DNA of 64,000 nt from Nitrospiraceae bacterium (lineage in GTDB: Bacteria; Nitrospirota; Nitrospiria; Nitrospirales; Nitrospiraceae). A model generated the notes under the pieces. It saw nothing but the letters and a program-made list of their open reading frames with translations, did no database searches and was not told where the DNA came from. The DNA lies in assembly GCA_050246315.1 (NCBI GenBank), contig JBFWWG010000005.1:242359-306358 (forward strand), written 5' to 3'. Both the position numbers and the translations under genes were made by a program. Positions 25,227 to 57,456 of this stretch are shown piece by piece; positions within the stretch are counted from its first letter, which is position 1; every line of letters starts with the position of its first letter.

Positions 25227-26498
25227 ATGAATAGAACCTCGCAGAACTCCACAGATCGCCTCCGGCAGGCTTTGCGGGAGAAATCGCGTGAAGTGGAGGT
25301 GCTTCATCGCATCAGTGATTCCATCAGCAACACGCTGGATCTCGAATCCGTCCTGAAACACATCGTGGATGTGGTGGTGGAAGTCACGAACGCCGACGCC
25401 TGCCTCCTGTATTTGTTGTCGACCGGCAAGGATGAACTGGTGCTTCGCGCGTCCAAGAATCCCCACCCGAGGTTGATCGGCCGCATTACCCTCGGTTTGG
25501 GCGAAGGCATCACGGGCTGGGTGGCTCGGGAGCGCACGAGCGTGGTGATCCCCAACAACGCAAGCGACGACACCCGGTTCAAGGTATTTCACAACCTACC
25601 TGAAGATCGGTACCAGGCGTTCGTGTCGGTGCCGATACTGACGAAGAAGGAAGTGGTGGGTGTCATCAATGTCCAACACAAGCGTCCCCGCCGCTATCAG
25701 GCGGACGAGTTGGCGCTCCTGACGACGATCGCCAACCAAGTGGGCGGGGCCATCGAGAACGCGCGGCTCTATGATGAAATGCGGAGGAAAGTCCTGCAGG
25801 TGGATACCCTCTCTCAGGTCTCGGAAACGGTGACGTCCAACCGGTTGATTGAGGATATCTTTCAGTTGATCGTTGCCATGGTCGCGCAATTGATGAACTC
25901 CAAGATTTGCTCGATCATGCTCTTAGACCACGGCAAAGGTGAACTGCGCATCGTGGCCACACAGAGTTTGAGCGAGGCCTACCGCCGGAAGCCGAACCTG
26001 AAGATCGGCCAAAGTATCAGTGGCCGGGCCGTGCAGGAACGCCGTCCCATCATCGTGCCGGACGTAACCAAAGAACACGACTATATGTTCCCGGATATCG
26101 CCAAGAAGGAAGGGCTCTGCTCACTGCTGTCCGTGCCCATGCTGGTAAGGGAGAAGGCGCTTGGTGTGATCAATACCTACACGTCGGTCCCCCACCACTT
26201 CACAGTTGAAGAAACCAAAGTTGTGCAAGCCATTGCCAATCAAGCCGCGATCGCCATCGAGCATACAACGTTGCTCGACAAGTCGTTTGAAATGCAAGAA
26301 GCGTTGGCGGTGCGGAAGGTTGTGGAGCGTGCCAAGGGTTACCTGATGCGAACGCGAAGATTGAGCGAGGAGGAAGCCTTCCGCCTGATTCAGCGTCAAA
26401 GCATGACCTTGCGTAAATCGATGCGCGAAGTCGCCGAGGCGATTCTTCTCGCCGGGGAGATCGAGGAACAGGCTGCCGGAGGACGCAAGCTCCCATAA
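25227..26498 (+). CDS. GAF-GAF-ANTAR transcription antitermination regulator
   Basis: Two GAF repeats (LGEGITGWVA...SVPI...VGVINV; IGQSISGRAV...SVPM...LGVINTY) and a C-terminal ANTAR domain RKVVERAKGYLM...SEEEAFRLIQRQSM..RKSMREVAEAIL. Confidence 0.92.
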   Translation: MNRTSQNSTDRLRQALREKSREVEVLHRISDSISNTLDLESVLKHIVDVVVEVTNADACLLYLLSTGKDELVLRASKNPHPRLIGRITLGLGEGITGWVARERTSVVIPNNASDDTRFKVFHNLPEDRYQAFVSVPILTKKEVVGVINVQHKRPRRYQADELALLTTIANQVGGAIENARLYDEMRRKVLQVDTLSQVSETVTSNRLIEDIFQLIVAMVAQLMNSKICSIMLLDHGKGELRIVATQSLSEAYRRKPNLKIGQSISGRAVQERRPIIVPDVTKEHDYMFPDIAKKEGLCSLLSVPMLVREKALGVINTYTSVPHHFTVEETKVVQAIANQAAIAIEHTTLLDKSFEMQEALAVRKVVERAKGYLMRTRRLSEEEAFRLIQRQSMTLRKSMREVAEAILLAGEIEEQAAGGRKLP

Positions 26499-26505
26499 CC
26501 CACAT

Positions 26506-27412
26506 CTATGCTTCTCCGGTTTCCTCCACAGGCTCCAATAGGTAGTATGCCGGCCATGCCGTGACCGGACTTTCCGGGGACATTCGGAGAGTTTCAGAGG
26601 CGTCTTGCCGACGAGAATACCTGCCGACTCTATCTGGTCGAGTCGCGCTGGCCCGATGGCTTCCGGTGTCCCCCGTGCGGCTCTGCGGCAGCGCTTGAGC
26701 TGCCAGCGTGGCTGCTGTGGTGCTGCCAGAGGTGCGGTCGGGAGACGTCGGTGACGGCCGATACGGTGCTACACCGAACGCGACTCCCGCTGACCCAGTG
26801 ATTCTGGGGCAGCTACCTGGTCATGACCCACAGGACGGATTTGTCGGCACTCCATCTGCTACGACAACTGGGGATCGGCCGTTACGAGACGGCCTGGGTG
26901 ATGCTCCAGAAACTCGGGCAGGCCATGGTGTGGCTCCACCGCGAGCGTTTCGACAAGGCGTTCGTGGTCGGGGCTGTGGATGTGCACGGACTCGCTTCTG
27001 GCTGGGTCCGCCTCCAGGTCATTCCTGACGCCTTGGCGCCGTCCCTGACCGGCTTCGTCACGCGGGACATGGAGCCGGGCATCATCGTCGTTACCGATGG
27101 ATGATCAGGATACGCGCCGCTCTCCGAGCTAGGATACCGGCATCGTCCACGCCCTCAGCGGGAGCCGGAACTCGCCGAAAAGATCCACCCACGAGCTCAC
27201 CGTGTCTTCGGGAATCTGAAAACTCAGCTGCGCGGGACTCACAACGCGGTCGGACACCAACATCTCCAGGCGTACCTGGACGAATTCACCTTCCGCTTCA
27301 ATCGGCGCCGGACTCCGGCGGCCGCCTTTCAATCCCTGCTCGGCCTCGGGCGCCAGCGATCAGCCACGACCTGCGACCAGTTGTATGCGGTGGAGTCAAC
27401 CGGATAAGCATG
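26506..27412 (+). mobile_element. Degenerate IS1595-family (ISXO2-like) insertion sequence
   Basis: Imperfect terminal IRs (ATGCTTCTCCGGTTTCCTCCAC vs reverse complement of 27390-27411, 19/22 match); 8-bp direct repeat ACCCACAT at 26498-26505 and 27413-27420. Confidence 0.88.
26556..27407 (+). pseudogene. IS1595-family transposase pseudogene
   Basis: RWPDGFRCPPCG zinc ribbon, YETAWVMLQKL, HLQAYLDEFTFRFNRR; several in-frame stops and an apparent internal deletion. Confidence 0.88.
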
Positions 27413-27513
27413 ACCCACATGAATCATGACGGTTCGTGACGTTTCACCCGTTGCTCTTCGAGCGCAACGTGCTGCACGGCGGCTGCATTGGAAGCGGTCA
27501 TGAATAATACGGA

Positions 27514-29756: not shown

Positions 29757-29786
29757 TTGACAGATTTCTCTCAAAACGCCTATAAA
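29757..29786 (+). promoter_or_regulatory. Candidate sigma70-type promoter of the urea operon
   Basis: TTGACA-N18-TATAAA just upstream of leader 1. Confidence 0.65.
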
Positions 29787-29811: not shown

Positions 29812-29910
29812 TAGAACAACGAAGTTCTACGGTCCCTCAGCCTTAGTGAGCGAAGGACAATGGCGTCCTTTTGGTCCATGACAATAATGGACCGGAAGGG
29901 CGTTTTTTTT
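29812..29910 (+). promoter_or_regulatory. ANTAR-type dual-hairpin attenuator (leader 1)
   Basis: TAGAAC-AACGAA-GTTCTA and AAGGAC-AATGGC-GTCCTT; the second overlaps a 17-bp terminator stem (29863-29903) with a T8 run. Confidence 0.85.
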
Positions 29911-29972: not shown

Positions 29973-31364
29973 ATGAGATGGGCACTGAAGTCTGGGGTGT
30001 GGGTCGGGATCGTCGGGCTGGTGCTTGCCGTGACCGCACCGGCGGCGTTTGCCGAGGAACCGGCCGGACAGTCGACCGGAGGGGGACGCCTAACCCGTGA
30101 GCAGGAGCAACCAATTGCGCATCTCTGTGCGGGGTGCGTGGCGCCGATGTTTACCGACGGCAGTCAGGGGAAGATCGTACCGTACGGACGAATCGAATTG
30201 GACGGCATCTACAGCACCAGAAACACCAACCCTCTGGATCCCCAGCAGTTCAACGGCTATGGGACGGCGGCAGGTCGCCAAGAGAACAGTAGCTCGACCT
30301 TGAATCCTCGCTACAGCGTGTTCGGCCTTCGTGCCGACCGGACCGACGGGACGAATTCCCTCACCGGCGTGGTCGAGGTGGATTTTTACGGGCAGAGCGA
30401 CAGCGGCAATAACTTGCTGCCCCGCCTGCGGCTCGCCTATGTGAAGTACTCTCCCAACAACAACCGGACTCTCTTCACCATCGGTCAGGATTGGAATCCG
30501 ATCATGGGGTTGCTGACAGATAATATTGACTTTTCCATCATGGGCTACACGGGCAATCTTTGGCAGCGTATTCCGCAAATCACCGTCAAGCACAACTTCA
30601 CGGAAAACTTTGAAGGGCTGTTCACGGTCATGCGCTTCGAGCGCGGCCTGTCCAACTGTTGCGGCAACACGCAGATCCGGCCGACGGATGCCGGTTTTCA
30701 GGGCGGCGGGCCGGGCAGCACCGCTTCGTTCAACGATCCCGTGCAGATGCCGTACTTCGGCACCAGGTTCGCGTATCATGGAACGGACAATCTCGCCGGG
30801 ACCATGGTGGCCGCCAACGTGGCCTATCGCTGGTACCGATCTGCGCCCATTCCGTTCAATCCGCTGGTCGGGGCTGCCTTCCAATCGGGGCAGAACATCA
30901 ATTCGTATCTTGTCGGGGTTGAAGCCGTGCATCAGATCACCAAGCAACTGAGATTCTCGAGCGAGATCTCATACGGGCAAGCGCTCGGCAACGAGTGGTT
31001 CAGGTGGAACCAGGATCTGAACTGGTTCACCGGAGAGGAGGTTCGGACTCTAACCGGGTGGGTCCAATTGAGCTACGCCCATGCGTGGGACTATACCTTT
31101 CTCGCCGGGTATGGATGGGACAATCCGGTCGATTCGGATCTGCGCGGCAGCATCAATGCCTATGGGGCGGGCGGCGTGAACTCGAACATACAATACCAGT
31201 CCAACCAGCGGACGTATCTGACCGTGATCCATCCCGTGTGGGCGGATCTGATCATGGGCTTCGAATGGCAACACTTCTGGACGAATTGGGCCCAGCCGAC
31301 GGGGTTGGCGTCCCAGCGCTTTCAGGCGGACATGTTCACGCTGTCGGCCTGGTACAACTTCTAG
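29973..31364 (+). CDS. Putative outer-membrane beta-barrel porin (urea operon)
   Basis: Signal peptide, VEVDFYG and RLRLAYV porin-like strands, C-terminal WYNF. Confidence 0.75.
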   Translation: MRWALKSGVWVGIVGLVLAVTAPAAFAEEPAGQSTGGGRLTREQEQPIAHLCAGCVAPMFTDGSQGKIVPYGRIELDGIYSTRNTNPLDPQQFNGYGTAAGRQENSSSTLNPRYSVFGLRADRTDGTNSLTGVVEVDFYGQSDSGNNLLPRLRLAYVKYSPNNNRTLFTIGQDWNPIMGLLTDNIDFSIMGYTGNLWQRIPQITVKHNFTENFEGLFTVMRFERGLSNCCGNTQIRPTDAGFQGGGPGSTASFNDPVQMPYFGTRFAYHGTDNLAGTMVAANVAYRWYRSAPIPFNPLVGAAFQSGQNINSYLVGVEAVHQITKQLRFSSEISYGQALGNEWFRWNQDLNWFTGEEVRTLTGWVQLSYAHAWDYTFLAGYGWDNPVDSDLRGSINAYGAGGVNSNIQYQSNQRTYLTVIHPVWADLIMGFEWQHFWTNWAQPTGLASQRFQADMFTLSAWYNF

Positions 31365-31395
31365 CTGCGCTTACAGAGAGAAAAGGAGTCTGACG

Positions 31396-32763
31396 ATGGA
31401 TGTGACGCCTCATGATGAGATGAAGGGCACTGAGACCAGCAACACGGGTCATGACCACGAACCGTCTCGGCGGGATCTGCTGGCGCAGGGGGTCAAGGCG
31501 ACGGCCAGTCTGGGCGTCGCGGCGCTGCTCGGGAATCTCGGCCACTGGGCGCTGTCCTATGCCGCCGACCAGGAACCGATCAAGATCGGGGTGCTGCATT
31601 CGCTGAGCGGGACGATGGCTATCAGCGAGGTCTCGCTGCGGGATGTCGTTCTGATGGCGGTCGGAGAGATCAACGCCAAGGGCGGGGTTCATGGCCGTAA
31701 GGTCGTGCCCGTCGTGGTCGATCCGGCTTCGAACTGGGATCTCTTTGCAGAAAAGGCCAAGCAACTGCTCCTCCAGGACAAGGTGGCGGTGGTGTTCGGT
31801 TGTTGGACCTCCGTGAGCCGAAAATCCGTGCTGCCGGTCTTCGAGAAGAACAACGGGCTGCTGTTCTATCCGGTGCAGTACGAGGGGGAAGAATGTTCCC
31901 GCAACGTGTTCTACACGGGGGCGGCGGTGAACCAGCAGGCCGTGCCGGCCGTGGAATTTCTGATGAGCAAAGAGGGAGGCGGCTACAAGAAGTTCTATCT
32001 GTTGGGGACAGATTACGTGTATCCTCGCACGACGAACAAGATCCTGCGGGCGATGCTGTTGGCCAAGAAGGTTCCGCCAGCCAATATTATGGAGGAGTAC
32101 ACGCCCTTTCACCACCAGGATTATCAAACGATTGTCGGCAAGATCAAGAAATTCTCAGCCGGCGGAGGTGCCTGCGTCATCAGCACGATCAATGGTGACA
32201 GCAACGTGCCCTTTTACAAGGAATTTGCCAATCAGGGCTTGCGGGCTGAGGATGCGCCGATCATGGCATTCAGCGTGGCGGAAGACGAACTGCGGGGGAT
32301 GGATACGACGGCACTGGTCGGGCACCTGGCGGCCTGGAACTACTACCAGAGCGTGGATGCGCCGGAGAACAAGAAATTCGTCTCCGATTTCAGGACCTAC
32401 TGCAAGCAGAGCAATCTGCCGGACGGCGACAAACGAGTGACGGACGATCCCATCGAAGCCGCGTATTTCGGGGTGCACGTCTGGAAACAAGCGGTCGAGA
32501 AGGCCGGCTCCACCGAGGTGGACAAGGTACGCAAAGCGGTCTATGGGCTGGAGTTTGACGCGCCGGGCGGCAGAAAAAAAATGGATGAAGCCAATCATCA
32601 CACGCACAAACCCGTCCTGATCGGGGAGATCAGAAAGGACGGACAGTTCAACATCGTCTGGCACTCGAAGGGTTTGGTCAAACCGGAACCGTGGAGCGAA
32701 TACACGAACCCGGACAAGGGTTGCGATTGGGTGGCGCACCAAGGCACCTATCAGAAGAAGTAA
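31396..32763 (+). CDS. urtA: Urea ABC transporter substrate-binding protein
   Basis: Tat signal SRRDLL; IKIGVLHSLSGTMAISE, GCWTSVSRKSVLP, YPVQYEG. Confidence 0.95.
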   Translation: MDVTPHDEMKGTETSNTGHDHEPSRRDLLAQGVKATASLGVAALLGNLGHWALSYAADQEPIKIGVLHSLSGTMAISEVSLRDVVLMAVGEINAKGGVHGRKVVPVVVDPASNWDLFAEKAKQLLLQDKVAVVFGCWTSVSRKSVLPVFEKNNGLLFYPVQYEGEECSRNVFYTGAAVNQQAVPAVEFLMSKEGGGYKKFYLLGTDYVYPRTTNKILRAMLLAKKVPPANIMEEYTPFHHQDYQTIVGKIKKFSAGGGACVISTINGDSNVPFYKEFANQGLRAEDAPIMAFSVAEDELRGMDTTALVGHLAAWNYYQSVDAPENKKFVSDFRTYCKQSNLPDGDKRVTDDPIEAAYFGVHVWKQAVEKAGSTEVDKVRKAVYGLEFDAPGGRKKMDEANHHTHKPVLIGEIRKDGQFNIVWHSKGLVKPEPWSEYTNPDKGCDWVAHQGTYQKK

Positions 32764-32769
32764 GTCCGC

Positions 32770-34347
32770 ATGCACCCCAGGACCAGGCGCCACTCCGATC
32801 GACTCAAATGGATGCGACGCGGGCTGCTCCTCTGCTTCGTCTTGTTGACGCAGGGCTTGGCATGGGGGGAAGAGCGGCCGGTTGGATTCGTGTCCGATTC
32901 CGTCGAACAGCAGGTGCGCGCGTTGATGAGCGATGACCCCGCCATTCAGCAGGCGTCGTTTGCCGCGCTGGTTGAATCGACGGACCCAGCGCTCCTGCAT
33001 CGGCTGCAGGAGATTCGCGACGATGCCGATCGGTCCACCAGACTGGCTCTGAAACCGGTCATGGATCTGGTCAAGAATCGGGTGAATTTGGCCAACGCCG
33101 ATCCGGATCAGCGGCGTTCCGCGGCGTCGGATCTCGGAGGGCTGGGGTACCCTGTCGCCATCCCATGGCTGCAAGCGGCGCTCACCGACGAATCCCATCG
33201 GTGGGTGCGGTACGCGATTCAGGAAGCCCTGGCATTGATCCAATTGCAGAATCCGGATAGCCGAGTCCGATTGGCTGCGGTGCAACAACTGGGCGATCTG
33301 GCCAGCCAGCACGGCCTGTCGAAGCTCAAAGACATGGTTGCCTTGACAGAACAGGCCGAGGCGCCCCCGGGCACGACGGTGGATGCGGCGGTCGTCCAGT
33401 CGGCGAAGCAGGCCATTGAGAAGATCGAACGGTGGGCGGTCTGGTCCAGCGCGTTCGAGACGGTGTTTCATGGGATCAGCTTGAGCTCGATCCTCCTGCT
33501 GATGGCCCTGGGATTGGCTATCGTATTCGGCTTGATGGGGGTCATCAATATGGCCCACGGCGAGCTGATGATGGTAGGCGCCTATGCCACGTTCATGACG
33601 CAGGAGTTCTTCAAAGCCTATGCGCCGCCGGATATCTTCGACTGGTATTTCTGGACGGCCTTGCCGGTATCATTTTGTGCATCGGCGGTACTGGGCTTGG
33701 TCCTGGAAGCGACGCTCATCCGATTTCTCTACGGCAGGCCGCTGGAAACGATGTTGGCAACCTGGGGGGTCAGTCTGGTCCTGATTCAAGCGGCGCGGGT
33801 GACGTTCGGTGACCTGACGGCCGTGACCGCCCCCTCCTGGTTCAGCGGCGGGGCGCAGGTCATGGTGGGTCTGTACCTGCCGTTTAACCGGCTGTTCATT
33901 ATCGGACTCTCGGTGATCTCCGTCATCGGCATTTACCTGTTGCTGTTTCGGTCAGGCCTGGGCCTGCGCGTGCGGGCGGTGATGCAAAACCGCCCTATGA
34001 GCGCTTGTCTGGGGATTCCGACGAGAACCGTGGATGCCTATACGTTCGCCTTCGGGTCCGGGTTGGCGGGGCTGGCCGGTTGGGCGTTGACGCTGGTCGG
34101 CAATGTCGATCCTGGGCTGGGCCAAAACTACATCGTGGACTCATTCATGGTCGTGGTCACCGGAGGGGTGGGAAAGCTGGCCGGAACCGTCGTGGCCGCG
34201 CTCGGGATCGGAAGTTTGAATAAGCTGTTCGAACCGAGTTTTGGGGCCGTGTATGCCAAGGTGTTGATTCTGTTGTTGGTTGTGCTCTTCCTTCAACGTC
34301 GGCCTTCGGGATTGTTTGCCATCAAGGGACGTCATGCCGACGCCTGA
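32770..34347 (+). CDS. urtB: Urea ABC transporter permease with HEAT-like N-terminal domain
   Basis: GVINMAHGELMM.GAY, LYGRPLETMLATWG, YIVDSFMVVV.GGVG. Confidence 0.95.
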   Translation: MHPRTRRHSDRLKWMRRGLLLCFVLLTQGLAWGEERPVGFVSDSVEQQVRALMSDDPAIQQASFAALVESTDPALLHRLQEIRDDADRSTRLALKPVMDLVKNRVNLANADPDQRRSAASDLGGLGYPVAIPWLQAALTDESHRWVRYAIQEALALIQLQNPDSRVRLAAVQQLGDLASQHGLSKLKDMVALTEQAEAPPGTTVDAAVVQSAKQAIEKIERWAVWSSAFETVFHGISLSSILLLMALGLAIVFGLMGVINMAHGELMMVGAYATFMTQEFFKAYAPPDIFDWYFWTALPVSFCASAVLGLVLEATLIRFLYGRPLETMLATWGVSLVLIQAARVTFGDLTAVTAPSWFSGGAQVMVGLYLPFNRLFIIGLSVISVIGIYLLLFRSGLGLRVRAVMQNRPMSACLGIPTRTVDAYTFAFGSGLAGLAGWALTLVGNVDPGLGQNYIVDSFMVVVTGGVGKLAGTVVAALGIGSLNKLFEPSFGAVYAKVLILLLVVLFLQRRPSGLFAIKGRHADA

Positions 34348-34410
34348 GAAGTGTCAATCGTCATGGGTCAATCGTGATTGGAAAGAGAAATGTCCCTTGG
34401 CTGAGACCCG

Positions 34411-35598
34411 ATGAGGATTGACCGTTCGTCGAGTAACGAGGAGTGTGTGGGGAAATCGGCTGACGGCGATCGTCTCGGTGAACGCCGAGAGGGGCTTCTC
34501 TACTGGTTGACTGCCTTCCTCTTGCTGGTCTTCGTTCCCCTGCTGAATCTGCTGCCGGGTCAGGATTCGTGGCTGCATGTTTCGGACTTTGCACTGAATC
34601 GCTTCGGGAAGTTTCTCGCCTTCGGGATACTGGCACTCGGGCTTGATTTGATTTGGGGCTATACCGGCATTCTGAGCCTCGGCCACGGCGTGTTCTTCGG
34701 CCTGGGTGCCTATGCGATGGGGATGCATTTGGCGCTGGCGATCGGAACGGAAAGTGTTTACGGAAGCGCACTCCCCGACTTCATGGTCTGGAACCAAGTG
34801 AAGGAACTGCCGCTGTTCTGGAAGCCGTTTTACAGCTTTCCGATCGCGTTGCTCGCTGCGATTGTCGTCCCAATCCTCTGTGCTTGGCTGTTCGGCGCGC
34901 TCGCCTTCCGTAGCCGGATCAAGGGCGTGTACTTCGCCATCATCACCCAGGCCCTGGCTCTGTCCGCCTGGCTCGTGTTCAACCGCAATGAAACCAACCT
35001 GGGAGGTACCAACGGCCTGACGGATTTCAAGACCTTGCTGGGATTTCGACTGAGCGACCCCCACACGCAGCTTCTGTTGTACGTGATCACGGTCCTTTGT
35101 CTGGGTGGGGCCTATCTCCTTTGTCGGTGGATCGTGCAGTCACGAACTGGCAAAGTGCTGGTGGCCATCAGGGACAGTGAACAACGGGTGCTGTTCTCCG
35201 GGTACTCGCCGGCCCAGTACAAGCTCTTTGTGTTTGTCGTATCGGCAGGTCTGGCCGGCTTGGCCGGCGCGCTCTATGTTCCGCAAGTTGGGATTATCAC
35301 GCCCGCTCAAATGGGTGTGCTTCCCTCGCTCGAAATGGTCATTTGGGTGGCGGTCGGCGGACGGGGTACGTTGGCGGGTGCCGTCATCGGCGCGGTCGGG
35401 GTCAATTGGGCCAGGAGTTTGCTCACCAACCATTTTCCGGATCTCTGGCCCTTCTTCCTGGGCGGACTGTTCGTCGCGGTGGTCCTGTTCTTTCCCGAGG
35501 GGCTGGTCGGTGTGACGAATCGGATCCACGCCCGATTCGCCCATCGACGGACTCCGGTGAGCAAAGCGACTTCAGACCGGAGTCTCATGATGACATGA
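34411..35598 (+). CDS. urtC: Urea ABC transporter permease
   Basis: LDLIWGYTGILSLGHG, RSRIKGVYFAIITQA; true start may be GTG 34447. Confidence 0.94.
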   Translation: MRIDRSSSNEECVGKSADGDRLGERREGLLYWLTAFLLLVFVPLLNLLPGQDSWLHVSDFALNRFGKFLAFGILALGLDLIWGYTGILSLGHGVFFGLGAYAMGMHLALAIGTESVYGSALPDFMVWNQVKELPLFWKPFYSFPIALLAAIVVPILCAWLFGALAFRSRIKGVYFAIITQALALSAWLVFNRNETNLGGTNGLTDFKTLLGFRLSDPHTQLLLYVITVLCLGGAYLLCRWIVQSRTGKVLVAIRDSEQRVLFSGYSPAQYKLFVFVVSAGLAGLAGALYVPQVGIITPAQMGVLPSLEMVIWVAVGGRGTLAGAVIGAVGVNWARSLLTNHFPDLWPFFLGGLFVAVVLFFPEGLVGVTNRIHARFAHRRTPVSKATSDRSLMMT

Positions 35599-36362
35599 CG
35601 GACCGGGGATCGATCATCTATCTCGAAGGCGTCACCGTTGACTACGACGGGTTCAAAGCCTTGAATGGGCTTAACTTCATCGTGGGCCATCACGAGCTTC
35701 GCGTCGTGATCGGACCGAACGGGGCCGGCAAGACGACGTTGTTGGATGTGATTTCCGGGAAAACCAAACCGGTCGCCGGTCGCGTCATCTACGGCCGCGA
35801 TACGGATCTGCTGCCGCTTCGCGAGCATGAGATTGCCGGTCTTGGAATCGGACGCAAGTTTCAAGCACCCTCGATCTTTGCCAATCTGACCCTGTGGGAG
35901 AACTTGGATGTGTCGCTGAAGCGGCAGAGCAAGGGTGTGATGGCGACCCTGATGAGCCGGCCGACGCAAGCCGAACGGGCACGCATCGAGGACATGTTGG
36001 AAACCGTCGGGCTCCGAGACAAGGCCCAGCTCCGAGCGGGATCGTTGTCGCATGGGGAGAAACAGTGGCTTGAAATCGGGATGGTCCTGTTGCAAGACCC
36101 GCAACTGCTGCTCGTGGATGAGCCGGTGGCCGGCATGACCGATCGCGAAACAGAGCAGACAGGCCTGTTGCTGCAATCCCTGGCGGAAGCCCATGCCATT
36201 GTGGTGATCGAGCACGATATGGAATTCGTGAGGCAGATCGCCCGTACCGTGACGGTCATGCATGAAGGCGCGGTGATCTGCGAAGGCTCAGTGGAGGCGG
36301 TTCAGGCGGACGCCCGCGTCCGCGAAATCTACCTCGGCCGGCAGAAGGTGGCGCATGCTTGA
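35595..36362 (+). CDS. urtD: Urea ABC transporter ATPase
   Basis: [30 protein letters not shown]. Confidence 0.95.
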   Translation: MTDRGSIIYLEGVTVDYDGFKALNGLNFIVGHHELRVVIGPNGAGKTTLLDVISGKTKPVAGRVIYGRDTDLLPLREHEIAGLGIGRKFQAPSIFANLTLWENLDVSLKRQSKGVMATLMSRPTQAERARIEDMLETVGLRDKAQLRAGSLSHGEKQWLEIGMVLLQDPQLLLVDEPVAGMTDRETEQTGLLLQSLAEAHAIVVIEHDMEFVRQIARTVTVMHEGAVICEGSVEAVQADARVREIYLGRQKVAHA

Positions 36363-37065: not shown

Positions 37066-37463
37066 TGGTCCAGCGAAGATTGAGCAAGATTGTGAGCATG
37101 GCAGGCTCTGTGCTGCTGCTGAGTCTCTCTGCCTGTGCGACAACCAGCTACAAGCCTTTGGAACAGACGACGGGCCAGGACGTAGCGCAAGTCGCCGAGA
37201 ATGAATTTCGGGTGGAGTATCGAGCCGGACTGTTTACCCCGCAGAAACGGATGGACGACTATATCAAGCTGCGCTGCGCCGAGGTGACGCTCCAGCGAGG
37301 GTATGACTATTTCGAATTGGGTGAACGATTCGACAACGTGATCTTTTCCCGGACCACTTCGGTGTTGCTCCGCGTGCATAAGGGCAAGATCCCCGAGGGG
37401 GCCACTCTGTTCCACGATGCCAGGCAGGTCATGACGGACCTCCGAGACCTTCCGAGGGAGTGA
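37065..37463 (+). CDS. Small lipoprotein of unknown function inside the urt-ure operon
   Basis: Lipobox [19 protein letters not shown]; fills the urtE-ureA gap. Confidence 0.75.
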
Positions 37464-45331: not shown

Positions 45332-45343
45332 TCGTAAGAGACA

Positions 45344-45373: not shown

Positions 45374-45424
45374 AAGAGACGAGCGGGGAAGCGTGCGACC
45401 TCAGTGACGACAAGGGAGGGACGA

Positions 45425-46768
45425 GTGAGGACATATCCTGGAGGTTCCGGAACCGTGGGGCCGGTTCTCGCGATAGCCGCCGTGCAACTGATGGTGGCCG
45501 TCGTGAGCGGCGACCTCTGTTTCGCGCAAGGAGCGGAGCCGCCGCTGAAAGCCGATACGGGCGACACGGCATGGGTCTTGGCTTCCTCGGCGTTGGTGTT
45601 GGCCATGACCGTGCCGGGCCTGGCCCTGTTTTACGGCGGCCTGGTCCGGAAGAAGAATACACTTGCGACGGTGCTCCACAGTTTCTGTATTTTGAGCGTG
45701 ATCAGCTTGCTGTGGATACTCATGGGCTACAGTTTGGCTTTCGGCCCGGACAAGGGCGGGGTCATCGGCGGGCTTGATTGGATCGGGCTGTCGGGAGTCG
45801 GTATGGAACCGCATCCGGTCTATGGGCCGACGATTCCGCACCAGGCCTTTATGGTCTTCCAACTCATGTTCGCGGCGATCACACCCGCGTTAATCACAGG
45901 AGCCTACGCGGAGCGGATCAAGTTCAGCGCCATGCTGTTCTTCAGCATCCTCTGGTCGCTGATGGTCTATGCGCCGGTTGCCCATTGGTTATGGGGCGGT
46001 GGGTGGCTTGCGAAGATGGGAGCCTTGGACTTTGCCGGCGGGGCGGTGGTGCACATCACCTCGGGCATTAGCGCCCTGGTTTGTGCGCTGGTCCTTGGCC
46101 AACGGCGCGGTTATGGGACGGACTATATGGCGCCTCATAACTTGCCCTTGACGTTGCTTGGGACGGGACTGTTGTGGTTCGGGTGGTTCGGATTCAACGC
46201 GGGCAGTGCGCTCGGGGCCAACGGGGTCGCCGTAGGCGCCTTCGTGGCCACCCACACGGCCGCTGCCAGCGGAGGGCTCGTCTGGATGTCGGTGGAATGG
46301 ATGCACCGGGGCAAGCCGACCGTGCTGGGCATGGCCAGCGGCGTCATTGCGGGACTGGCGACCGTGACGCCGGGAGCCGGGTTTGTCGGACCGCTTTCGG
46401 CCTTAATGATCGGCGCGATCGCCGGATTTCTCTGCTACTTCGCAATTGTGTGGAAGGGGAAGTTCGGCTATGATGACGCCCTCGATGTCGTGGGAATTCA
46501 CGGTGTAGGCGGGATCGTCGGGATTCTGGCCACGGGTCTGTTCGCTTCCAAAGCGGTTAATGCCGGAGGAGCCGACGGGTTGCTTTTCGGCAACCCGGGA
46601 TTCTTCGGTGTCCAGGCGCTGACGGTTCTCGTTGTCTCCGGGTTTTCGCTGGCCATGACCTATGTGCTGCTGAAGGTCCTGGATGTCCTGACAGGACTGC
46701 GGGTGACGCCGGACGAGGAGGCGAGTGGCCTTGATCTGGCGCAGCACAACGAGCGTGCCTATTCGTAA
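45425..46768 (+). CDS. amtB: Ammonium transporter AmtB (copy 1)
   Basis: FQLMFAAIT, DFAGGAVVH, GWFGFNAGS, GIHG; start approximate. Confidence 0.96.
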   Translation: MRTYPGGSGTVGPVLAIAAVQLMVAVVSGDLCFAQGAEPPLKADTGDTAWVLASSALVLAMTVPGLALFYGGLVRKKNTLATVLHSFCILSVISLLWILMGYSLAFGPDKGGVIGGLDWIGLSGVGMEPHPVYGPTIPHQAFMVFQLMFAAITPALITGAYAERIKFSAMLFFSILWSLMVYAPVAHWLWGGGWLAKMGALDFAGGAVVHITSGISALVCALVLGQRRGYGTDYMAPHNLPLTLLGTGLLWFGWFGFNAGSALGANGVAVGAFVATHTAAASGGLVWMSVEWMHRGKPTVLGMASGVIAGLATVTPGAGFVGPLSALMIGAIAGFLCYFAIVWKGKFGYDDALDVVGIHGVGGIVGILATGLFASKAVNAGGADGLLFGNPGFFGVQALTVLVVSGFSLAMTYVLLKVLDVLTGLRVTPDEEASGLDLAQHNERAYS

Positions 46769-46810
46769 GCGATCTGGGTCAAGTTCAACGCATCGCAGCC
46801 TGTTCGATGA

Positions 46811-49866
<3,056 letters not shown>

Positions 49867-51689: not shown

Positions 51690-51719
51690 TTGACGGTTGG
51701 CTCGAGTGCGTGGTATAAG
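51690..51719 (+). promoter_or_regulatory. Candidate sigma70-type promoter of the cyanate operon
   Basis: TTGACG-N18-TATAAG with an extended -10 TG. Confidence 0.65.
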
Positions 51720-51741
51720 CCGATCTTAAGAGTCGAACTAG

Positions 51742-51939
51742 GACAACGGCGTCGCTGGGACGACTCTCATAAATGGGTTAACGGACAACGGCGTCCGTCA
51801 TTCTGGAAAGAGTGGCGGACGCCGTTCGATTTAGGGGTTACGACGAGACGGGGCGGTCTCGGACGAGTGTCAGACAGCATCTGGTAGGACAATGGCGTCC
51901 TCCGTTCCCGTGAATGGGAATCGAGGACGCTTTTTTTTT
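51742..51939 (+). promoter_or_regulatory. Tandem double ANTAR-type attenuator (leader 3)
   Basis: Four hexaloop hairpins (AACGGC, AACGGC, GGGGCG, AATGGC); competing 18-bp stem at 51787-51826; terminator 51895-51930 plus T9. Confidence 0.85.
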
Positions 51940-52005: not shown

Positions 52006-53331
52006 ATGAGCGATGACAGGGGAGGGTCAGGTCAATCCGAAGCAAGCCGGTCCGGTGTGCCACGACTCTCATCCGAGGAGTATTTCGAGCGAACCGTGAC
52101 GGCATCGGTGGCCGATGCCGTCCTCAAGAGCGCCGGTCCGTCGCGGCGCGGGCTCCTTGCGGCGCTGGGAGCGACGGCGCTGATCGCGTTCATTGAAAAT
52201 GTCTTGCCGCTGCGAGAGATCGTCGCGCTGGCCGCAGATCCGATCGGGAAACCGGAGAAGAAGGATGTGAGCGTGGGCTTTATTCCGATCACCTGCGGGA
52301 CGCCCATCATCATGGCCGAGCCGCTTGGCTTCTACAAGAGGCATGGTCTCAACGCCTCGGTGAAGCGAGCTGCCGGCTGGGCCATGATCCGCGACTGGGC
52401 GATCAACGGGGAGGTGGACGCCGCCCATATGCTGACTCCGATGCCGCTGGCCATCACCTTGGGGGCCGGCTCCGTTCCGACGCCCTTCTATATGCCGGCC
52501 GTGGAGAATATCAACGGGCAGGCGATTACGCTGCATATCAAACATAAGAACGTGAAGACGGCGGCCGACATGAAGGGCTTCCGGTTCTGTGTGCCGTTCG
52601 ATTTCTCGATGCACAATTACCTCCTGCGTTATTTCTTGGCCGAAGGAGGTCTGCATCCGGATAAGGATGTGCAAATTCGAATCGTGCCTCCTGCCGAGAT
52701 GGTGGCGAACCTGAAGGCCGGGAACGTGGACGGCTACCTGGGGCCGGACCCCTTCAATCAACGGGCGGTATACGAAAATGTCGGCTACATCTTCAAACTC
52801 TCCAAGGAGATTTGGGACAGGCACCCCTGTTGCGCCTTTACGGTGTCGCAAGAGTTCGCCGTACGCCATCCCAACACCTTCGGGGCGCTCTTGCGCGCGA
52901 TCATCGATGCGACGCACTATGCCTCGAACCCCGCACATCGTAAAGAAATCGCCGCGGCGCTCGCGCCGACCAACTATTTGAATCAGCCCGTCACCGTCCT
53001 GGAACAGGTCCTGACCGGTACCTACGCGGACGGATTGGGCGCGATCAAGAAGGAGCCGAACCGCATCGACTTCGATCCCTACCCCTGGCATTCGATGGCC
53101 GTTTGGATTCTCACCCAGATGAAGCGATGGGGCCATCTGAAAGCGGACGTCAACTACAAGGCCGTGGCCGAACAAGTCTATCGAGCCGCCGACTGCGATC
53201 GGGTTGCCAAGGAGTTGGGCTATCCCACGCATGCGAGCACGACGACGAAACACATGATCATGGGCCGTGAGTTCGATCCGCAGCAGGCGGACGCGTATGT
53301 GAAGAGCTTCAAAATCCACGGGATGGCGTGA
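52006..53331 (+). CDS. cynA: NrtA/CmpA-family ABC substrate-binding protein, probably cyanate (CynA)
   Basis: Tat-like SRRGLL; GFIPITCGTP, ENINGQAI, FSMHNYLLRY; upstream of cyanase. Confidence 0.85.
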   Translation: MSDDRGGSGQSEASRSGVPRLSSEEYFERTVTASVADAVLKSAGPSRRGLLAALGATALIAFIENVLPLREIVALAADPIGKPEKKDVSVGFIPITCGTPIIMAEPLGFYKRHGLNASVKRAAGWAMIRDWAINGEVDAAHMLTPMPLAITLGAGSVPTPFYMPAVENINGQAITLHIKHKNVKTAADMKGFRFCVPFDFSMHNYLLRYFLAEGGLHPDKDVQIRIVPPAEMVANLKAGNVDGYLGPDPFNQRAVYENVGYIFKLSKEIWDRHPCCAFTVSQEFAVRHPNTFGALLRAIIDATHYASNPAHRKEIAAALAPTNYLNQPVTVLEQVLTGTYADGLGAIKKEPNRIDFDPYPWHSMAVWILTQMKRWGHLKADVNYKAVAEQVYRAADCDRVAKELGYPTHASTTTKHMIMGREFDPQQADAYVKSFKIHGMA

Positions 53332-53376
53332 TCCAAGCGTGAGCAGGACGTGACGGTTGGAGGAGGCGACCAAGAG

Positions 53377-54360
53377 ATGCTGACGGAAACAGCGGTGGCA
53401 AGCGGCGAATCGGTCAGTGTCGATACCCCGGGACGGCCCGCCCCGGCAGCCAACGGCAAGAAGGTCCGTTCCATGGCCGGGCAGACGGGCGGCAATCCGT
53501 GGGTAATTTCAGGGTTCCTCCTCTTTCTGTTCCTTCTGGGGTGGCAGTTCTTCACGCTGCGAGCCCCGTTTGATCCGAAAGGGATGACGGAGGAGCAGCT
53601 TCTATTGATGGAGTTTAATGGGGATATCGTTCGCACGGAGAACAACACGTATCAATGGAACCCTGAAAAGGAAAAAGTCAAAGGGGTGCCGGGGCCCTTG
53701 GCCGTGCTGGAGAAGGCACGGACCGAGCTGAGCGAGGCCTTCGTGAAGAAAGGGACGAACGATCACGGGATCGGCTACCTCGTGCTCTACACCGTCGCGC
53801 GGTTCGGGGCCGGATTCCTTGCCGCGTCCGTCGTGGCGATCATCCTGGGCGTGCTGCTGGGGATGAACAAGGTGCTCTTCAAGGCCGTGAATCCCTATAT
53901 CCAGATACTCAAACCGATCTCGCCGCTGGCCTGGATGCCGCTGCTGCTCTATACCGTGAAAGACCCGAAGATGACGGCGGTATTGGTGGTCTTCATGGCG
54001 GCGTTGTGGCCCACGTTGGCAACGACGGCCTTCGGCGTGAACGGCCTGCGCAAGGACTACTTGCATGTGGCGGCGATCCTTCAGTTGTCCTGGGTCAAAC
54101 GACTGTACAAAGTGATCCTGCCCGGCGCGGCCCCGACGATCGTCAACGGCCTGCGAATCTCCTTTGGCAGCGCGCTGGTCGCGGTGGTTCCTGCGGAGAT
54201 GCTGCTTGGAGAACTGGGTGTCGGGTATTTGAGCTGGATCGAGTGGAACAACCTCGATATTTCCGGCGTCATTTTCGCGATTCTCGTGGTGGGCTGTGTG
54301 GGAGTGATCTTGGATTCGGGGTTCAACAAGTTGGCCGGCCTCGTCACCTATCAGGAGTGA
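53377..54360 (+). CDS. cynB: NrtB-family ABC permease (CynB)
   Basis: QILKPISPLAWMP, AEML, WIEWNNL. Confidence 0.85.
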   Translation: MLTETAVASGESVSVDTPGRPAPAANGKKVRSMAGQTGGNPWVISGFLLFLFLLGWQFFTLRAPFDPKGMTEEQLLLMEFNGDIVRTENNTYQWNPEKEKVKGVPGPLAVLEKARTELSEAFVKKGTNDHGIGYLVLYTVARFGAGFLAASVVAIILGVLLGMNKVLFKAVNPYIQILKPISPLAWMPLLLYTVKDPKMTAVLVVFMAALWPTLATTAFGVNGLRKDYLHVAAILQLSWVKRLYKVILPGAAPTIVNGLRISFGSALVAVVPAEMLLGELGVGYLSWIEWNNLDISGVIFAILVVGCVGVILDSGFNKLAGLVTYQE

Positions 54361-54363
54361 GCC

Positions 54364-55209
54364 ATGGCCTTTCTGCAAATCGACAACGTCAGCAAATATT
54401 TTCCTAACGCGTCGGGCGAGGGACGGGTCTGCGTGTTCAAGGATGTCACGATCAAGATCGACAAAGGCGAGTTCGTGACGGTCATCGGCCATTCCGGATG
54501 CGGCAAGAGCACCCTGCTGAACATCATCGCCGGACTGGACGAAGCCTCCGAGGGAGGGGTGTTGCTGGGGGGGCGAGAAGTCACGGGTCCGGGCTTGGAC
54601 CGCATGGTGGTCTTTCAGAATTTTTCCCTGATGCCCTGGATGACGGTGTTCGAGAACATCGCCTTGGCGGTACGATCGGCCTATCCGGACTGGGACCCAT
54701 CGCAAGTGGCGGCCCATGTGAACAAGTACATCGCGCTGGTCGGATTGAAGGGAGCAGAGACCAAGCGGCCGGCTGCCTTGTCGGGAGGTATGAAGCAGCG
54801 GGTCGGGCTGGCACGCGCCTTTTCCATTGAACCCAAAGTTCTGTTGCTCGATGAGCCGTTTGCTCAGATCGACGCGCTGACCCGCGGCGTGATCCAGGAG
54901 GAGCTGATTCAAATGTGGACCGGCTCGAAGAACACGGTGTTTATGGTCACCCATGACGTGGATGAGGCCATCCTATTGTCCGATCGGATCATGCTGATGA
55001 CCAACGGACCGTCCTCGCGGATTGGCGAGATCGTGGACGTCACGATCCCTCGGCCTCGATCGCGAGAGACGATCATCGACCACCCCCACTACTACAAGAT
55101 CAGGAATCATGTGATTCATTTCCTGGTCCGGCATGCAGCCCATGCCGGCGGGGCCGGACCGATCCCCGGCGGCAAGTCTGTCGAGGAGCCGGTTCTGGTT
55201 CGGTTCTGA
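54364..55209 (+). CDS. cynD: NrtD-family ABC ATPase (CynD)
   Basis: GHSGCGKST, LSGGMKQRV, MVTHDVDEAILLSDRIMLMTNGP. Confidence 0.87.
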   Translation: MAFLQIDNVSKYFPNASGEGRVCVFKDVTIKIDKGEFVTVIGHSGCGKSTLLNIIAGLDEASEGGVLLGGREVTGPGLDRMVVFQNFSLMPWMTVFENIALAVRSAYPDWDPSQVAAHVNKYIALVGLKGAETKRPAALSGGMKQRVGLARAFSIEPKVLLLDEPFAQIDALTRGVIQEELIQMWTGSKNTVFMVTHDVDEAILLSDRIMLMTNGPSSRIGEIVDVTIPRPRSRETIIDHPHYYKIRNHVIHFLVRHAAHAGGAGPIPGGKSVEEPVLVRF

Positions 55210-55266
55210 TTGAGGCGGGCGAACAACGCCGTTCCGGCGATGGGCGGCGGAACTGAGGAGGGGCAC

Positions 55267-55707
55267 ATGGATAGGGAGGCGGTACGCAAGACGGTCAGAG
55301 AGAAGCGGATGAAGAAACAGGTCACGATCGCCGACATCGCGAAAACCGTCGGGAAGAATCCCACCTTTGTGGCGGCGGCGCTGAACGGCAATCACCGATT
55401 GACGACGGACGAGGCCAAAAAGGTTGGCGCGCTGTTGGAATTGGACGGCGCTACGACGGAGGCCCTGAGCAAATTTCCCGTCCGAACCGACTATCCGAAC
55501 GCGGCGGATCCCTTCAAGTACCGATTGATGGAAATCATCGGTGTCTACGGTGATTCGCTGCGCGAACAGGCCAACGAAATATTCGGCGACGGGATCATGA
55601 GCGCGATCGACTTCACGATCGACATGGAAAAGGTCACCGGCAGCCAGGGCGAGGCCCGGTGCAAGATTACGCTCAACGGCAAGTGGCTGGAGTACAAGAC
55701 GTTCTGA
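55267..55707 (+). CDS. cynS: Cyanase (cyanate hydratase)
   Basis: DPFKYRLME, FGDGIMSAIDF, TLNGKWL. Confidence 0.95.
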   Translation: MDREAVRKTVREKRMKKQVTIADIAKTVGKNPTFVAAALNGNHRLTTDEAKKVGALLELDGATTEALSKFPVRTDYPNAADPFKYRLMEIIGVYGDSLREQANEIFGDGIMSAIDFTIDMEKVTGSQGEARCKITLNGKWLEYKTF

Positions 55708-55755
55708 TTCTGCGGAGCCGGAACCGTGCGACCTGTTGATCGAGGATCGAGAGCG

Positions 55756-57153
55756 ATGCGAGAGCCGTCGAACGCACCATCCAGTATTGTGACGAGTCGG
55801 GGGTGTCCCGTGGGCCTTGGAACGAGTATCAGGCGTCAACCAGGTGCCGTGCTGGTTAGTCTGGCGGCGATCTGTTGTGTGGTGCCGCCGGGGTTGGCCA
55901 TGGCCCAAGTGCCGGTTCAAGCCGTGACACCGGTCATCAACGAGGCTGACACTGCGTGGGTCCTGGTGTCGTCCGCCTTCGTGCTGGCCATGACCATGCC
56001 GGGCCTGGCGCTGTTCTACGGTGGACTGGTCCGCAGTAAGAACGTGCTGGGGACGATCATGCAGACCTTCGCGGTCGTGTGCCTGGTGAGCCTGTTGTGG
56101 ATGGTTGTCGGCTACAGCCTGGCATTTGGTCCCGATACTCAAGGCCTCGTCGGCAATCTGGACTGGGTCGGTTTGAACGGCGTGGGACTGGCACCGCACG
56201 CGGCCTATGGCCCCACCATCCCGCATCAGGCCTTCATGATTTTTCAGATGATGTTCGCCGCGATCACGCCGGCCTTGATCACCGGAGCCTTTGCGGAACG
56301 GATGAAGTTCAGCGCCCTTGTCCTCTTTACGGGACTCTGGTCGTTGGCGATCTATTGTCCGATTGCACATTGGCTGTGGGGAGGCGGGTGGTTAGCCAAA
56401 TTGGGAGCGCTGGACTTTGCCGGAGGGGCGGTGGTTCATCTCAGTTCCGGCGTGAGTGCGCTGGTGTGCGCGCTCGTTCTCGGCGCGCGTCAGGGATACG
56501 GAACGGATTACCTCGCGCCGCACAATCTCCCGATGGTGCTGCTCGCGACCGGCCTTCTGTGGTTCGGATGGTTCGGTTTCAACGCGGGGAGCGCTCTGGG
56601 CGCGAACGAGACGGCGGTCATCGCTTTCACGGCGACCCATATCGGAGCCGCTGCCGGTGCGCTGGCCTGGTTGGCAGTGGAATGGGTGCATCGCGGGACA
56701 CCAACGGTGCTGGGGATCGCAAGCGGTGCGGTGGCCGGGTTGGCGATGGTGACACCTGGCGCGGGCTATGTGGGCCCAGTTGCGGCCCTGCTGATCGGGA
56801 CGATGGCCGGAGTGCTGTCGTATTGGGCCGTCATGAGCAAGAGCAAGTTGGGTTACGACGATGCGCTCGACGTGGTCGGCATCCATGGGGTGGCCGGGGT
56901 GGTCGGGATGGTGATGACGGGGTTGTTGGCGTCCAAGGCCGTGAACGTCGCCGGGGCGGACGGGCTCTGGACCGGCAACGTGCGCCTCTTCGGGGTCCAG
57001 ATCCTGGCAGTGGTGGCGGTCAGCCTCTTTTCCGCCGTCGGGACGCTGGTCATCTTGAAATTTGTCGATCGTGTCGTCGGCTTGCGCGTGACGCCGGAGG
57101 AAGAGCGGATGGGGTTGGACTTGAGTCAGCACAACGAGCGCGCATATTCCTGA
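55756..57153 (+). CDS. amtB: Ammonium transporter AmtB (copy 2)
   Basis: FQMMFAAIT, DFAGGAVVH, GWFGFNAGS, GIHG; start uncertain. Confidence 0.95.
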   Translation: MREPSNAPSSIVTSRGCPVGLGTSIRRQPGAVLVSLAAICCVVPPGLAMAQVPVQAVTPVINEADTAWVLVSSAFVLAMTMPGLALFYGGLVRSKNVLGTIMQTFAVVCLVSLLWMVVGYSLAFGPDTQGLVGNLDWVGLNGVGLAPHAAYGPTIPHQAFMIFQMMFAAITPALITGAFAERMKFSALVLFTGLWSLAIYCPIAHWLWGGGWLAKLGALDFAGGAVVHLSSGVSALVCALVLGARQGYGTDYLAPHNLPMVLLATGLLWFGWFGFNAGSALGANETAVIAFTATHIGAAAGALAWLAVEWVHRGTPTVLGIASGAVAGLAMVTPGAGYVGPVAALLIGTMAGVLSYWAVMSKSKLGYDDALDVVGIHGVAGVVGMVMTGLLASKAVNVAGADGLWTGNVRLFGVQILAVVAVSLFSAVGTLVILKFVDRVVGLRVTPEEERMGLDLSQHNERAYS

Positions 57154-57270
57154 TGGGGAAAGCGGAGCCCCACTGTGTTCTCGCTTCGCGAACATCCGCA
57201 ATGCACTCCAGAGGGTACGCCCGCGGTTCGCGGTCGACTGTGGCCTTGTGGGATCCACGTATTGAGCATC
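57151..57270. repeat. Possible decayed copy of a ~120-bp Nitrospira intergenic repeat
   Basis: Blocks GTTCTCGCTTCGC, GGGTACGCC, GGCCTTG, TTGAGCATC resemble a repeat I recall from Nitrospira genomes; single copy here. Confidence 0.4.
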
Positions 57271-57315
57271 GGGTTCGGCCAGGACGAACTGGCTCCGAGG
57301 GTCAGCTAGTCGTGT

Positions 57316-57456
57316 TCCTCACAACGGAGTGAGGATGTAACAGCGGTTCGACACTACAGATCCGGCAGCGCTGTCGGATTGGCTGGCAAAGGCGCCGGCG
57401 GTGAACGAGAAGGGTGATGGTCCACCCTCCCTCGCATCGCGGCGCCTTTTTTGTTT
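57316..57456 (+). promoter_or_regulatory. ANTAR-type attenuator (leader 4)
   Basis: TCCTCAC-AACGGA-GTGAGGA, ATCCGGC-AGCGCT-GTCGGAT, GCTGGC-AAAGGC-GCCGGC; the last overlaps a long terminator stem (57388-57449) ending TTTTTTGTTT. Confidence 0.82.

Follow-up and report, generated by a model that had tools for sequence, protein, structure and literature searches.

The window examined here is a stretch of 64,000 nucleotides from a Nitrospiraceae bacterium (GenBank assembly GCA_050246315.1, contig JBFWWG010000005.1, positions 242,359 to 306,358 of the forward strand), and positions given below are counted from its first letter. It contains a gene for a GAF-GAF-ANTAR protein and, downstream of this gene, four blocks of nitrogen-assimilation genes, each preceded by a leader in which hexaloop hairpins are combined with a terminator-like stem. 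The leaders share a common anatomy, they are conserved and covary among relatives, and they co-occur and co-locate with the regulator gene. We consider it probable, at roughly 85%, that they make up an ANTAR-type transcription-attenuation regulon of five units which is run by the GAF-GAF-ANTAR protein. Gene content was taken from Pfam and NCBIfam annotation of the window, in which all of the named genes lie on the + strand:

23878-25173, + strand: aroB (Pfam/NCBIfam annotation)
25227..26498, + strand: GAF-GAF-ANTAR one-component regulator, 423 aa, directly after aroB (Pfam and stop-free translation)
29973..42283, + strand: Block 1, a 463-aa first gene (putative porin), urtABCDE, a lipoprotein gene, ureABC, ureF and a UreD region (Pfam, NCBIfam)
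42546..49866, + strand: Block 2, nadE, DUF6733, amt, P-II and glnD (Pfam)
50245-51654, + strand: glnA, after Block 2 (Pfam/NCBIfam annotation)
~52006..57153, + strand: Block 3, an NMT1_2-type binding protein (cynA-like), permease, ATPase, cynS and amt (Pfam), with the start at 52006 inferred from the ribosome-binding site AAGAGGAG
57770..63683, + strand: Block 4, amt, Rieske protein, cytochrome b, multihaem cytochrome and ferredoxin-nitrite reductase nirA (Pfam, NCBIfam)

An earlier note on this DNA, made from the letters alone, had proposed the GAF-GAF-ANTAR gene at 25227-26498, and this was borne out by the stop-free translation of 423 aa and by Pfam, which assigned two GAF domains and one ANTAR domain (69.7 bits for ANTAR against a cut-off of 27.3, using the longer open reading frame (ORF) 24936-26498). 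The gene gave the sole PF03861 match in the whole 4.39-Mb, 30-contig genome (75.1 bits), and amoA was not found in this genome. Public records name the protein 'GAF and ANTAR domain-containing protein' or 'signal transduction protein with GAF and PtsI domain', and proteins named from Nitrospira tepida fall in its 90% cluster. The ANTAR region aligned with Rv1626 (5e-8), EutV (8.5e-8) and NasR (1.8e-4). The best NCBIfam matches of the first GAF domain (residues ~20-185) were PtsP (3.7e-38) and NifA (2.3e-26), all of them far under the equivalog cut-offs; this domain was closest to the Geobacter GAF domain 3e0y and also matched the solved GAF domains of PtsP (3ci6, 3trc) and Nlh1. Glutamine is bound by the GAF domain of PtsP (PMC4848567), and titles and abstracts in the literature connect the GAF domain of NifA with 2-oxoglutarate. 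Because the first GAF domain resembles those of PtsP and NifA, we infer that the tandem GAF domains may sense nitrogen status directly, by way of glutamine or 2-oxoglutarate.

Leader architecture

The following features were located in the leaders:

29757..29786, + strand: leader 1, promoter-like TTGACA-N18-TATAAA, read by eye
29812..29829, + strand: leader 1, first hairpin TAGAAC-AACGAA-GTTCTA (hairpin search, fold)
29852..29871, + strand: leader 1, second hairpin (candidate antiterminator) GAAGGAC-AATGGC-GTCCTTT, -7.8 kcal/mol
29862..29910, + strand: leader 1, predicted terminator of 18 bp + T8, -28.5 kcal/mol, with 29862-29871 common to the second hairpin
42334..42363, + strand: leader 2, promoter-like TTGACA-N18-TATAAG, read by eye
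42380..42393, + strand: leader 2, first hairpin AGAC-AACGGC-GTCT (hairpin search, fold)
42423..42438, + strand: leader 2, second hairpin AGGAC-AACGAC-GTCCT, -5.6 kcal/mol
42431..42475, + strand: leader 2, predicted terminator + T9, -27.4 kcal/mol
51690..51719, + strand: leader 3, promoter-like TTGACG-N18-TATAAG, read by eye
51738..51826, + strand: leader 3a unit, two AACGGC hairpins and an 18-bp competing stem at 51787-51826, -32.9 kcal/mol
51738-51758, + strand: leader 3a, first hairpin, bulged, CTAGGAC-AACGGC-GTC(G)CTGG
51781-51798, + strand: leader 3a, second hairpin ACGGAC-AACGGC-GTCCGT
51844..51939, + strand: leader 3b unit, with predicted terminator 51895-51930 + T9
51844-51861, + strand: leader 3b, first hairpin with degenerate loop GGGGCG
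51886-51901, + strand: leader 3b, second hairpin AGGAC-AATGGC-GTCCT
57316..57335, + strand: leader 4, first hairpin TCCTCAC-AACGGA-GTGAGGA, -10.1 kcal/mol
57359..57380, + strand: leader 4, tetraloop hairpin between the hexaloop hairpins (fold)
57382..57399, + strand: leader 4, second hairpin GCTGGC-AAAGGC-GCCGGC, of the divergent class CTGGC-AAAGGC-GCCRG
57389..57452, + strand: leader 4, predicted terminator + T6, -38.2 kcal/mol

The earlier note had described four leaders with C-G-closed hexaloop hairpins carrying A at loop position 1 and G at position 4. All of the hairpins it listed were found at the same positions, closed by C-G and with A1 and G4, and all four leaders are present, but leader 3 is a tandem of 3a and 3b and there are thus five attenuator units. 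Nine of the ten hairpins in these units follow the hexaloop rule (A1, G4), the exception being the first hairpin of 3b. That the last hairpin is shared with a U-tailed terminator was confirmed by the folds in every leader, and in four units the terminator which the second hairpin overlaps has a U6-U9 tail (T8, T9, T9, T6); 3' ends are predicted from the terminator folds at the U tracts 29903-29910, 42467-42475, 51931-51939 and 57447-57452. The note had also said that stem sequences differ while pairing and loop pattern are kept. Pairing and loops are indeed kept, but GGAC/GTCC forms the second hairpin throughout leaders 1-3, and every hairpin shows the same two closing pairs (A-U, C-G).

The minimum-free-energy fold was the terminator form in all leaders (z -3.4 to -6.0). 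The second hairpin alone folded at -5.6 to -9.7 kcal/mol, compared with -24 to -38 kcal/mol for the terminator, and because the terminator is far stronger, the default state would be OFF and the antiterminator hairpin would need stabilisation from outside, which is the logic of ANTAR systems (PMC3369931, PMC8934654). Linkers between the two hexaloop hairpins were 22, 29, 22, 24 and 46 nt long in the window, the 46-nt linker of leader 4 including a hairpin, and 11-37 nt in relatives. A consensus promoter scanner omits the promoter-like sites of leaders 1-3, as its rule demands T at the final position of the second hexamer; leaders in relatives are preceded by a similar layout (TTGACA..TATAAG). 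No promoter-like site was seen for leader 4, where the preceding amt ends at 57153. This leader is probably transcribed from the upstream cyn-amt genes and may be an intra-operon attenuator.

Conservation, specificity and co-occurrence

We built a covariance model, R1, from an alignment of 24 leaders, which were leaders 1 and 2 of the window and 22 from relatives, with 3a and 3b held out. The 13-mer GGACAAYGRCGTC retrieved 30 loci in relatives, and further loci came from a fetch of protein orthologs. Many relatives have the full layout of promoter, first hairpin with variable lower stem, second hairpin, terminator and U7-10. When the first hairpin and terminator were taken as the structure of the 24 leaders, 91% of cells paired, against 41-53% in slid controls; changes on both sides were found in 11 of 20 pairs, and the covariation score was reached by none of 500 shuffles. 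Most of these compensatory changes affect the terminator or the lower stem of the first hairpin. It should be noted that the second hairpin is invariant because of the way in which most rows were selected, and that the hairpin finder demanded the first hairpin's four uppermost pairs; the two closing pairs of the first hairpin, which was not selected by the search pattern, are invariant in 24/24 leaders.

The ortholog tallies contain three genomes that are unpublished (G006, G053 and G076), and unpublished genomes are also flagged in the R1 family scan and the CTGGCAAAGGCGCC count given below. G006 and G076 are also among the 13-mer loci, and G076 contributes one R1/alignment row (L033), the sigma-54 example L122, and loci L075 and L033 as protein locus. 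Leaving these genomes out shifts each count by at most 3, and no claim depends on them alone.

In its own genome R1 scored 77.3 bits for leader 1 and 74.8 bits for leader 2, and it recovered the held-out units 3b (56.6 bits) and 3a (30.1 bits); at E < 0.03 these four, all in the window, were the only matches in 4.4 Mb. In relatives the model found orthologous leaders before orthologous operons. A match at E ≤ 0.001 was present in 131 of 150 family genomes, and pairs of matches 6-47 nt apart, like tandem leader 3, were seen in at least 8 relatives. Across a 150-genome sample of the phylum, R1 matched in the window's own genome and 10/18 others of its family (f1) and in 7/7 genomes of the sister family (f2), with 0/124 in genomes of other families, outside the order.

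For 50 distinct leaders we obtained 47 first ORFs: the 463-aa porin-like gene 27 times (one being the window's own), nadE 8 times, cynS once, and 11 unmatched ORFs, one of which is an FNT nitrite/formate transporter. The first-ORF rule chooses some short and probably spurious ORFs. The 463-aa first gene of the urea operon (29973-31364) has no Pfam or NCBIfam family match; it is found at 40-75% identity across many genera, where it is kept as the first gene behind the leader.

The second hairpin of leader 4 belongs to a divergent class, and its sequence CTGGCAAAGGCGCC was found in 43 copies in 39 of 151 genomes, compared with 8 for the reversed control. Among 30 of these loci which we inspected, 23 were leaders with a terminator (...GGCGCC and then a T-rich tail). 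Their first hairpin is mostly of the canonical GAC/GTC type, and some have a further hairpin in between, as leader 4 does; a hairpin-forming stretch between the hexaloop hairpins was seen by eye in relatives L114 and L120-L122. The other 7 loci are apparently matches by chance within coding regions, including both of those in comammox genomes of genus g10. The class leaders precede cynA-like genes (6), cynS (3), amt (3), nirA (1) and a sigma-54 activator (6), with four others unassigned. In genus g5 the class fills the glnA-cynA gap, the place of leader 3 in the window, which ties leader 4 to the same system.

The sigma-54 activator behind class leaders (L107, L108, L109, L114, L120 and L122) is ~400-420 aa long and has no Pfam receiver match. 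Its position hints at a regulatory cascade; no clear ortholog was seen in the window's own genome, where 28 stretches matched at 38-55% identity.

Single hairpins of this type are common and uninformative, with 235 in the genome and 177-211 in five shuffles. In this respect the motif is near background, but a composite rule (a pair of A..G.. hexaloop hairpins separated by no more than 60 nt, of which the second overlaps a terminator of ≤ -12 kcal/mol before T5) stood above it, giving five matches genome-wide, three of them leaders 1, 2 and 4, against 1, 3 and 0 in three shuffles. The other two composite matches (C2:453436 and C3:138215) have 4-bp G-U-rich stems within the shuffle background and were rejected. 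The 13-mer occurs in 8 genome copies, against 0 for its reversed control, and 5 of the 8 are inside leaders. We discarded the remaining three as leaders: C1:206550 and C14:77555 are apparently coding with 3-bp pairing, and C13:13997 is apparently intergenic but has a 3-bp stem and no R1 match. No ANTAR-type family was matched in Rfam at gathering or E-value thresholds, although whether Rfam 15 includes one was not established, and ncS54 (17 bits) and NrsZ (15.4 bits), which matched weakly and far under their gathering scores, were rejected.

Orthologs of the regulator (74-98% identity) were found in 131/151 family genomes. The earlier note had suggested a test of whether the protein and its RNA targets occur together, and in the 150 genomes shared by both scans they agreed in 141:

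Protein and RNA: 126 genomes
Protein without RNA: 4 genomes (G034, G122, G130, G146)
RNA without protein: 5 genomes (G015, G029, G071, G094, G148)
Neither: 15 genomes, 13 of them in genus g10

All five genomes with RNA alone are draft assemblies (~30-260 contigs, 72-99% complete), and PF03861 was not found in any of them. A public scan with one genome per species gave 80 loci, of which 56 have a protein at ≥ 70% identity, and R1 matched 46 of these 56. All 46 matches are downstream of the ANTAR gene on the same strand, 36 of them within ~350 nt of its stop codon; in the window's genus the nearest leader is 3.3 kb from the gene. R1 matched 0/10 loci at 59-61% identity and 0/14 non-orthologs at 22-37%. 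The aroB-ANTAR pair is retained in all five loci of the distant family f13 (L157-L159, L161 and L162; orthologs 44-47% identical), where there was no R1 leader downstream and no convincing one by eye. One locus of family f3 has an ortholog without a detected aroB, and no leader was detected there.

Proposed antitermination and alternative explanations

The computational checks suggested in the earlier note all favoured its interpretation. From these observations we infer that the protein binds the hairpins and that binding prevents termination. Leaders 1-3 would be transcribed from their own sigma-70-like promoters, and by default the nascent leader would fold into a strong intrinsic terminator, so that transcription would halt before the operon. 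The active GAF-GAF-ANTAR protein would bind the hexaloop hairpins, with their core AC-AAYGRN-GU, and keep the weak second hairpin closed; the 5' arm of the terminator would then be unavailable and polymerase would read through. The ON state would correspond to nitrogen limitation, and the regulated genes would be the urea porin, urt and ure genes, nadE-amt-P-II-glnD, the cyanate transporter-cynS-amt operon, and amt with the haem-cytochrome module and nirA. All 18 RNA runs found exist as assembled contigs; of those aligned with 41500-58500, two bridge the 3b terminator, X3 record 21 (51830-52382) and X5 record 27 (50938-52868, ~96% alike, from a relative); such contigs cannot show ends, strand or level, DNA is possibly present, and no conclusion was drawn from them.

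Several results weigh against this reading. Leader 4 scored 13.7 bits with R1 (E 0.86 in the window), the 18-bp competing stem of 3a has a weak U tract, and no leader was detected for glnA itself (50245-51654). EutV antitermination is reported to be abolished by lengthening the linker by 20 nt (PMC8934654), and the linkers of the window are long (22-46 nt). Of the RNA-contact residues listed for EutV (PMC8934654; chain numbering offset of 2, counted by hand), Lys143, Met172 and Arg175 are unchanged in the regulator and Tyr164 is replaced by Phe, but Arg168, Asn173 and Arg177 are altered to Gln, Thr and Ser. Rv1626 also has Gln at the position of Arg168, with Arg following next in both proteins, and at the positions of Asn173 and Arg177 it matches neither EutV nor the regulator. 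Protein and RNA were discordant in 9/150 genomes, and two of the RNA-only genomes in which PF03861 was not found, G029 and G148, are 98-99% complete by marker genes. The Fisher p value of 3e-13 for co-occurrence overstates the association, as relatives are not independent and the signal comes mostly from one lineage. Orthologs of 44-62% identity (f3, f13 and Manganitrophaceae-type loci) were without R1 matches, and the pairing is so far traced within the order.

The discordant genomes, five with leaders in which no ANTAR gene was detected and four with the gene but no R1 match, would fit a situation in which the leaders are real attenuators operated by a metabolite on the RNA or by another RNA-binding protein, while the ANTAR protein regulates something else. 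We regard this as unlikely. The hairpins fit the published ANTAR rule of dual A1/G4 hexaloops with the second embedded in the terminator (PMC3369931, PMC8934654), the ANTAR gene is the only one in the genome, the 46 of 46 matches lie downstream of it, and gene and leaders are absent together in comammox genomes. In addition, no Rfam riboswitch family matched, and the RNA-only genomes are all drafts.

The compensatory changes in the first hairpin and terminator also bear on whether the GGAC-N6-GTCC elements might be DNA operators of a transcription factor, with the terminators unrelated. In sequence, the inverted repeat of the second hairpin, GGACAAYGRCGTCC, hardly varies, which speaks for an operator, but the elements are downstream of the promoter-like sites and inside the transcribed leader, the loop is asymmetric, the 46 matches beside the ANTAR gene are all on one strand, and the 3' arm is always within the terminator stem. 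The leader-4 class also keeps pairing and loop despite another stem sequence. We think the operator explanation very improbable. There is even less reason to see the leaders as ordinary operon-end or constitutive attenuators with hexaloop hairpins by chance, which we consider highly implausible: single hairpins are near their shuffled frequency and shuffles yield 0-3 composite matches per genome, but R1 has no further match in 4.4 Mb and none in any of the 124 genomes from outside the order, and the leaders are retained ahead of orthologous genes across many genera and disappear along with the regulator.

The ANTAR antitermination proposed here is the textbook mechanism and no new kind of system. 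EutV/EutW and the eut leaders of E. faecalis likewise have two A1/G4 hexaloop hairpins, the second embedded in a terminator, and several leaders per regulon (PMC3369931, PMC8934654). However, EutV has a phosphorylated receiver (REC-ANTAR) and targets ethanolamine genes, whereas the window's protein has a tandem GAF sensor and its putative targets are nitrogen-assimilation genes; the loop and stem top are more constrained in the window (AC-AAYGRN-GU), and linkers are 11-46 nt. NasR (NIT-ANTAR, Klebsiella nasF) and NasS/NasT are one-component or partner-controlled antiterminators of nitrite and nitrate assimilation (PMC7496416, PMC3795266, PMC10783516), and nirA likewise belongs to the proposed regulon. 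Unlike these, the protein described here has a GAF-GAF-ANTAR architecture, without a NIT domain or NasS partner, and its predicted regulon covers far more (urea, cyanate, ammonium transport, P-II, glnD, nadE). In Geobacter sulfurreducens, GnfK/GnfR is an ANTAR regulon over several nitrogen operons, but its regulator is a response regulator (REC-ANTAR; PMC2995071). PtsP (EI-Ntr) and NifA are alike in their GAF domains and differ in output, a phosphotransferase and an AAA+ activator respectively, compared with the RNA-binding ANTAR domain.

The dual-hairpin target was defined by Ramesh et al. 2012, who predicted ANTAR regulons before P-II, ammonium and urea transporter and nitrite reductase genes; the regulators of these predicted nitrogen regulons, as described there, are response regulators. 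According to the same source no ANTAR protein with a PAS or GAF domain had been characterised by then, and Nitrospira is absent from its text and 7 supplementary files. PAL and NasR are the sole characterised one-component ANTAR proteins named in excerpts of a 2020 paper on NasR, and in excerpts of a 2025 review GAF figures only as one of the architectures listed; the GAF-ANTAR sensor class is listed as uncharacterised (PMC3369931, PMC7496416). Our literature searches for ANTAR or antiterminator with Nitrospira returned no paper linking the two, judged by title and abstract, and nothing on the regulation of urea- or cyanate-use genes in Nitrospira.

Comammox genomes, significance and minor observations

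The clearest contrast between relatives was found in genus g10. The five genomes of this genus which carry the protein are exactly the five with R1 matches, and all are without amoA. The 13 genomes without protein and RNA are all amoA-positive and therefore comammox. In three of these comammox genomes (G081, G113 and G141) aroB adjoins nadE directly, the ANTAR gene being gone from between them; neither nadE nor urtA is preceded by a hexaloop pair or T run, and a search beside urtA did not find the porin gene. The amoA-negative congener G145 has full leaders before nadE and the porin gene, and in G009 the ANTAR gene is directly upstream of nadE. In genus g19 the ten amoA-positive genomes all keep the protein with 0-2 R1 matches, while its seven amoA-negative members have 2-6, and the regulon thus appears smaller in this second comammox lineage. 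The joint absence of regulator and leaders in amoA-positive genomes amounts to a natural knockout, and this could be why comammox and canonical Nitrospira differ in nitrogen physiology.

In soils, waters and treatment plants nitrite is oxidised mainly by Nitrospira, which are tied to ammonia oxidisers through the urea and cyanate that they use. The regulon offers experimental handles in the form of a single protein, five RNA switches whose 3' ends are predicted, and a ligand hypothesis for a GAF-ANTAR protein. A broader proposal is that this protein is the master nitrogen regulator of nitrite-oxidising Nitrospirales, sensing glutamine or 2-oxoglutarate directly, recognising an extended signature (AC-AAYGRN-GU) with a stem top that EutV does not read, and lost in the comammox members of one genus along with all leaders examined; we put this forward tentatively, as somewhat under an even chance. 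If true, the control of urea and ammonium assimilation in these comammox bacteria would differ fundamentally from that in their nitrite-oxidising sisters.

Some minor observations were made in the gene blocks. On the - strand, 38429-38724 matched the Rfam family 5_ureB_sRNA (95.6 bits), antisense to the urease alpha-subunit gene, which may simply reflect conserved urease coding sequence. A small ORF at 57675-57878 (67 aa, ATG at 57675) has a GGAGG ribosome-binding site, lies upstream of and overlaps the called amt start, and has a weak MarR-like match (E 0.0023, under the cut-off). Between the leader 4 terminator and amt, positions 57467-57656 hold a 95-nt tandem direct repeat whose two copies are 80% identical, and one copy is missing from an RNA contig of a related strain (joint 57509 to 57608). 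We dropped the repeat as a possible part of the switch, since it folded no better than shuffles (z 0.0 and 0.69).

Outside the window, an apparently intergenic copy of GGACAATGGCGTC is found near the perfect palindrome TACGAATATTCGTA on G000 contig C13 (~13890-14090), with a 3-bp hairpin and no model match. On G000 contig C12 (~49190-50250), copies of CCACGGC-ATTGCT-GCCGTGG occur ~72 nt apart with regular spacing, resembling a CRISPR array.

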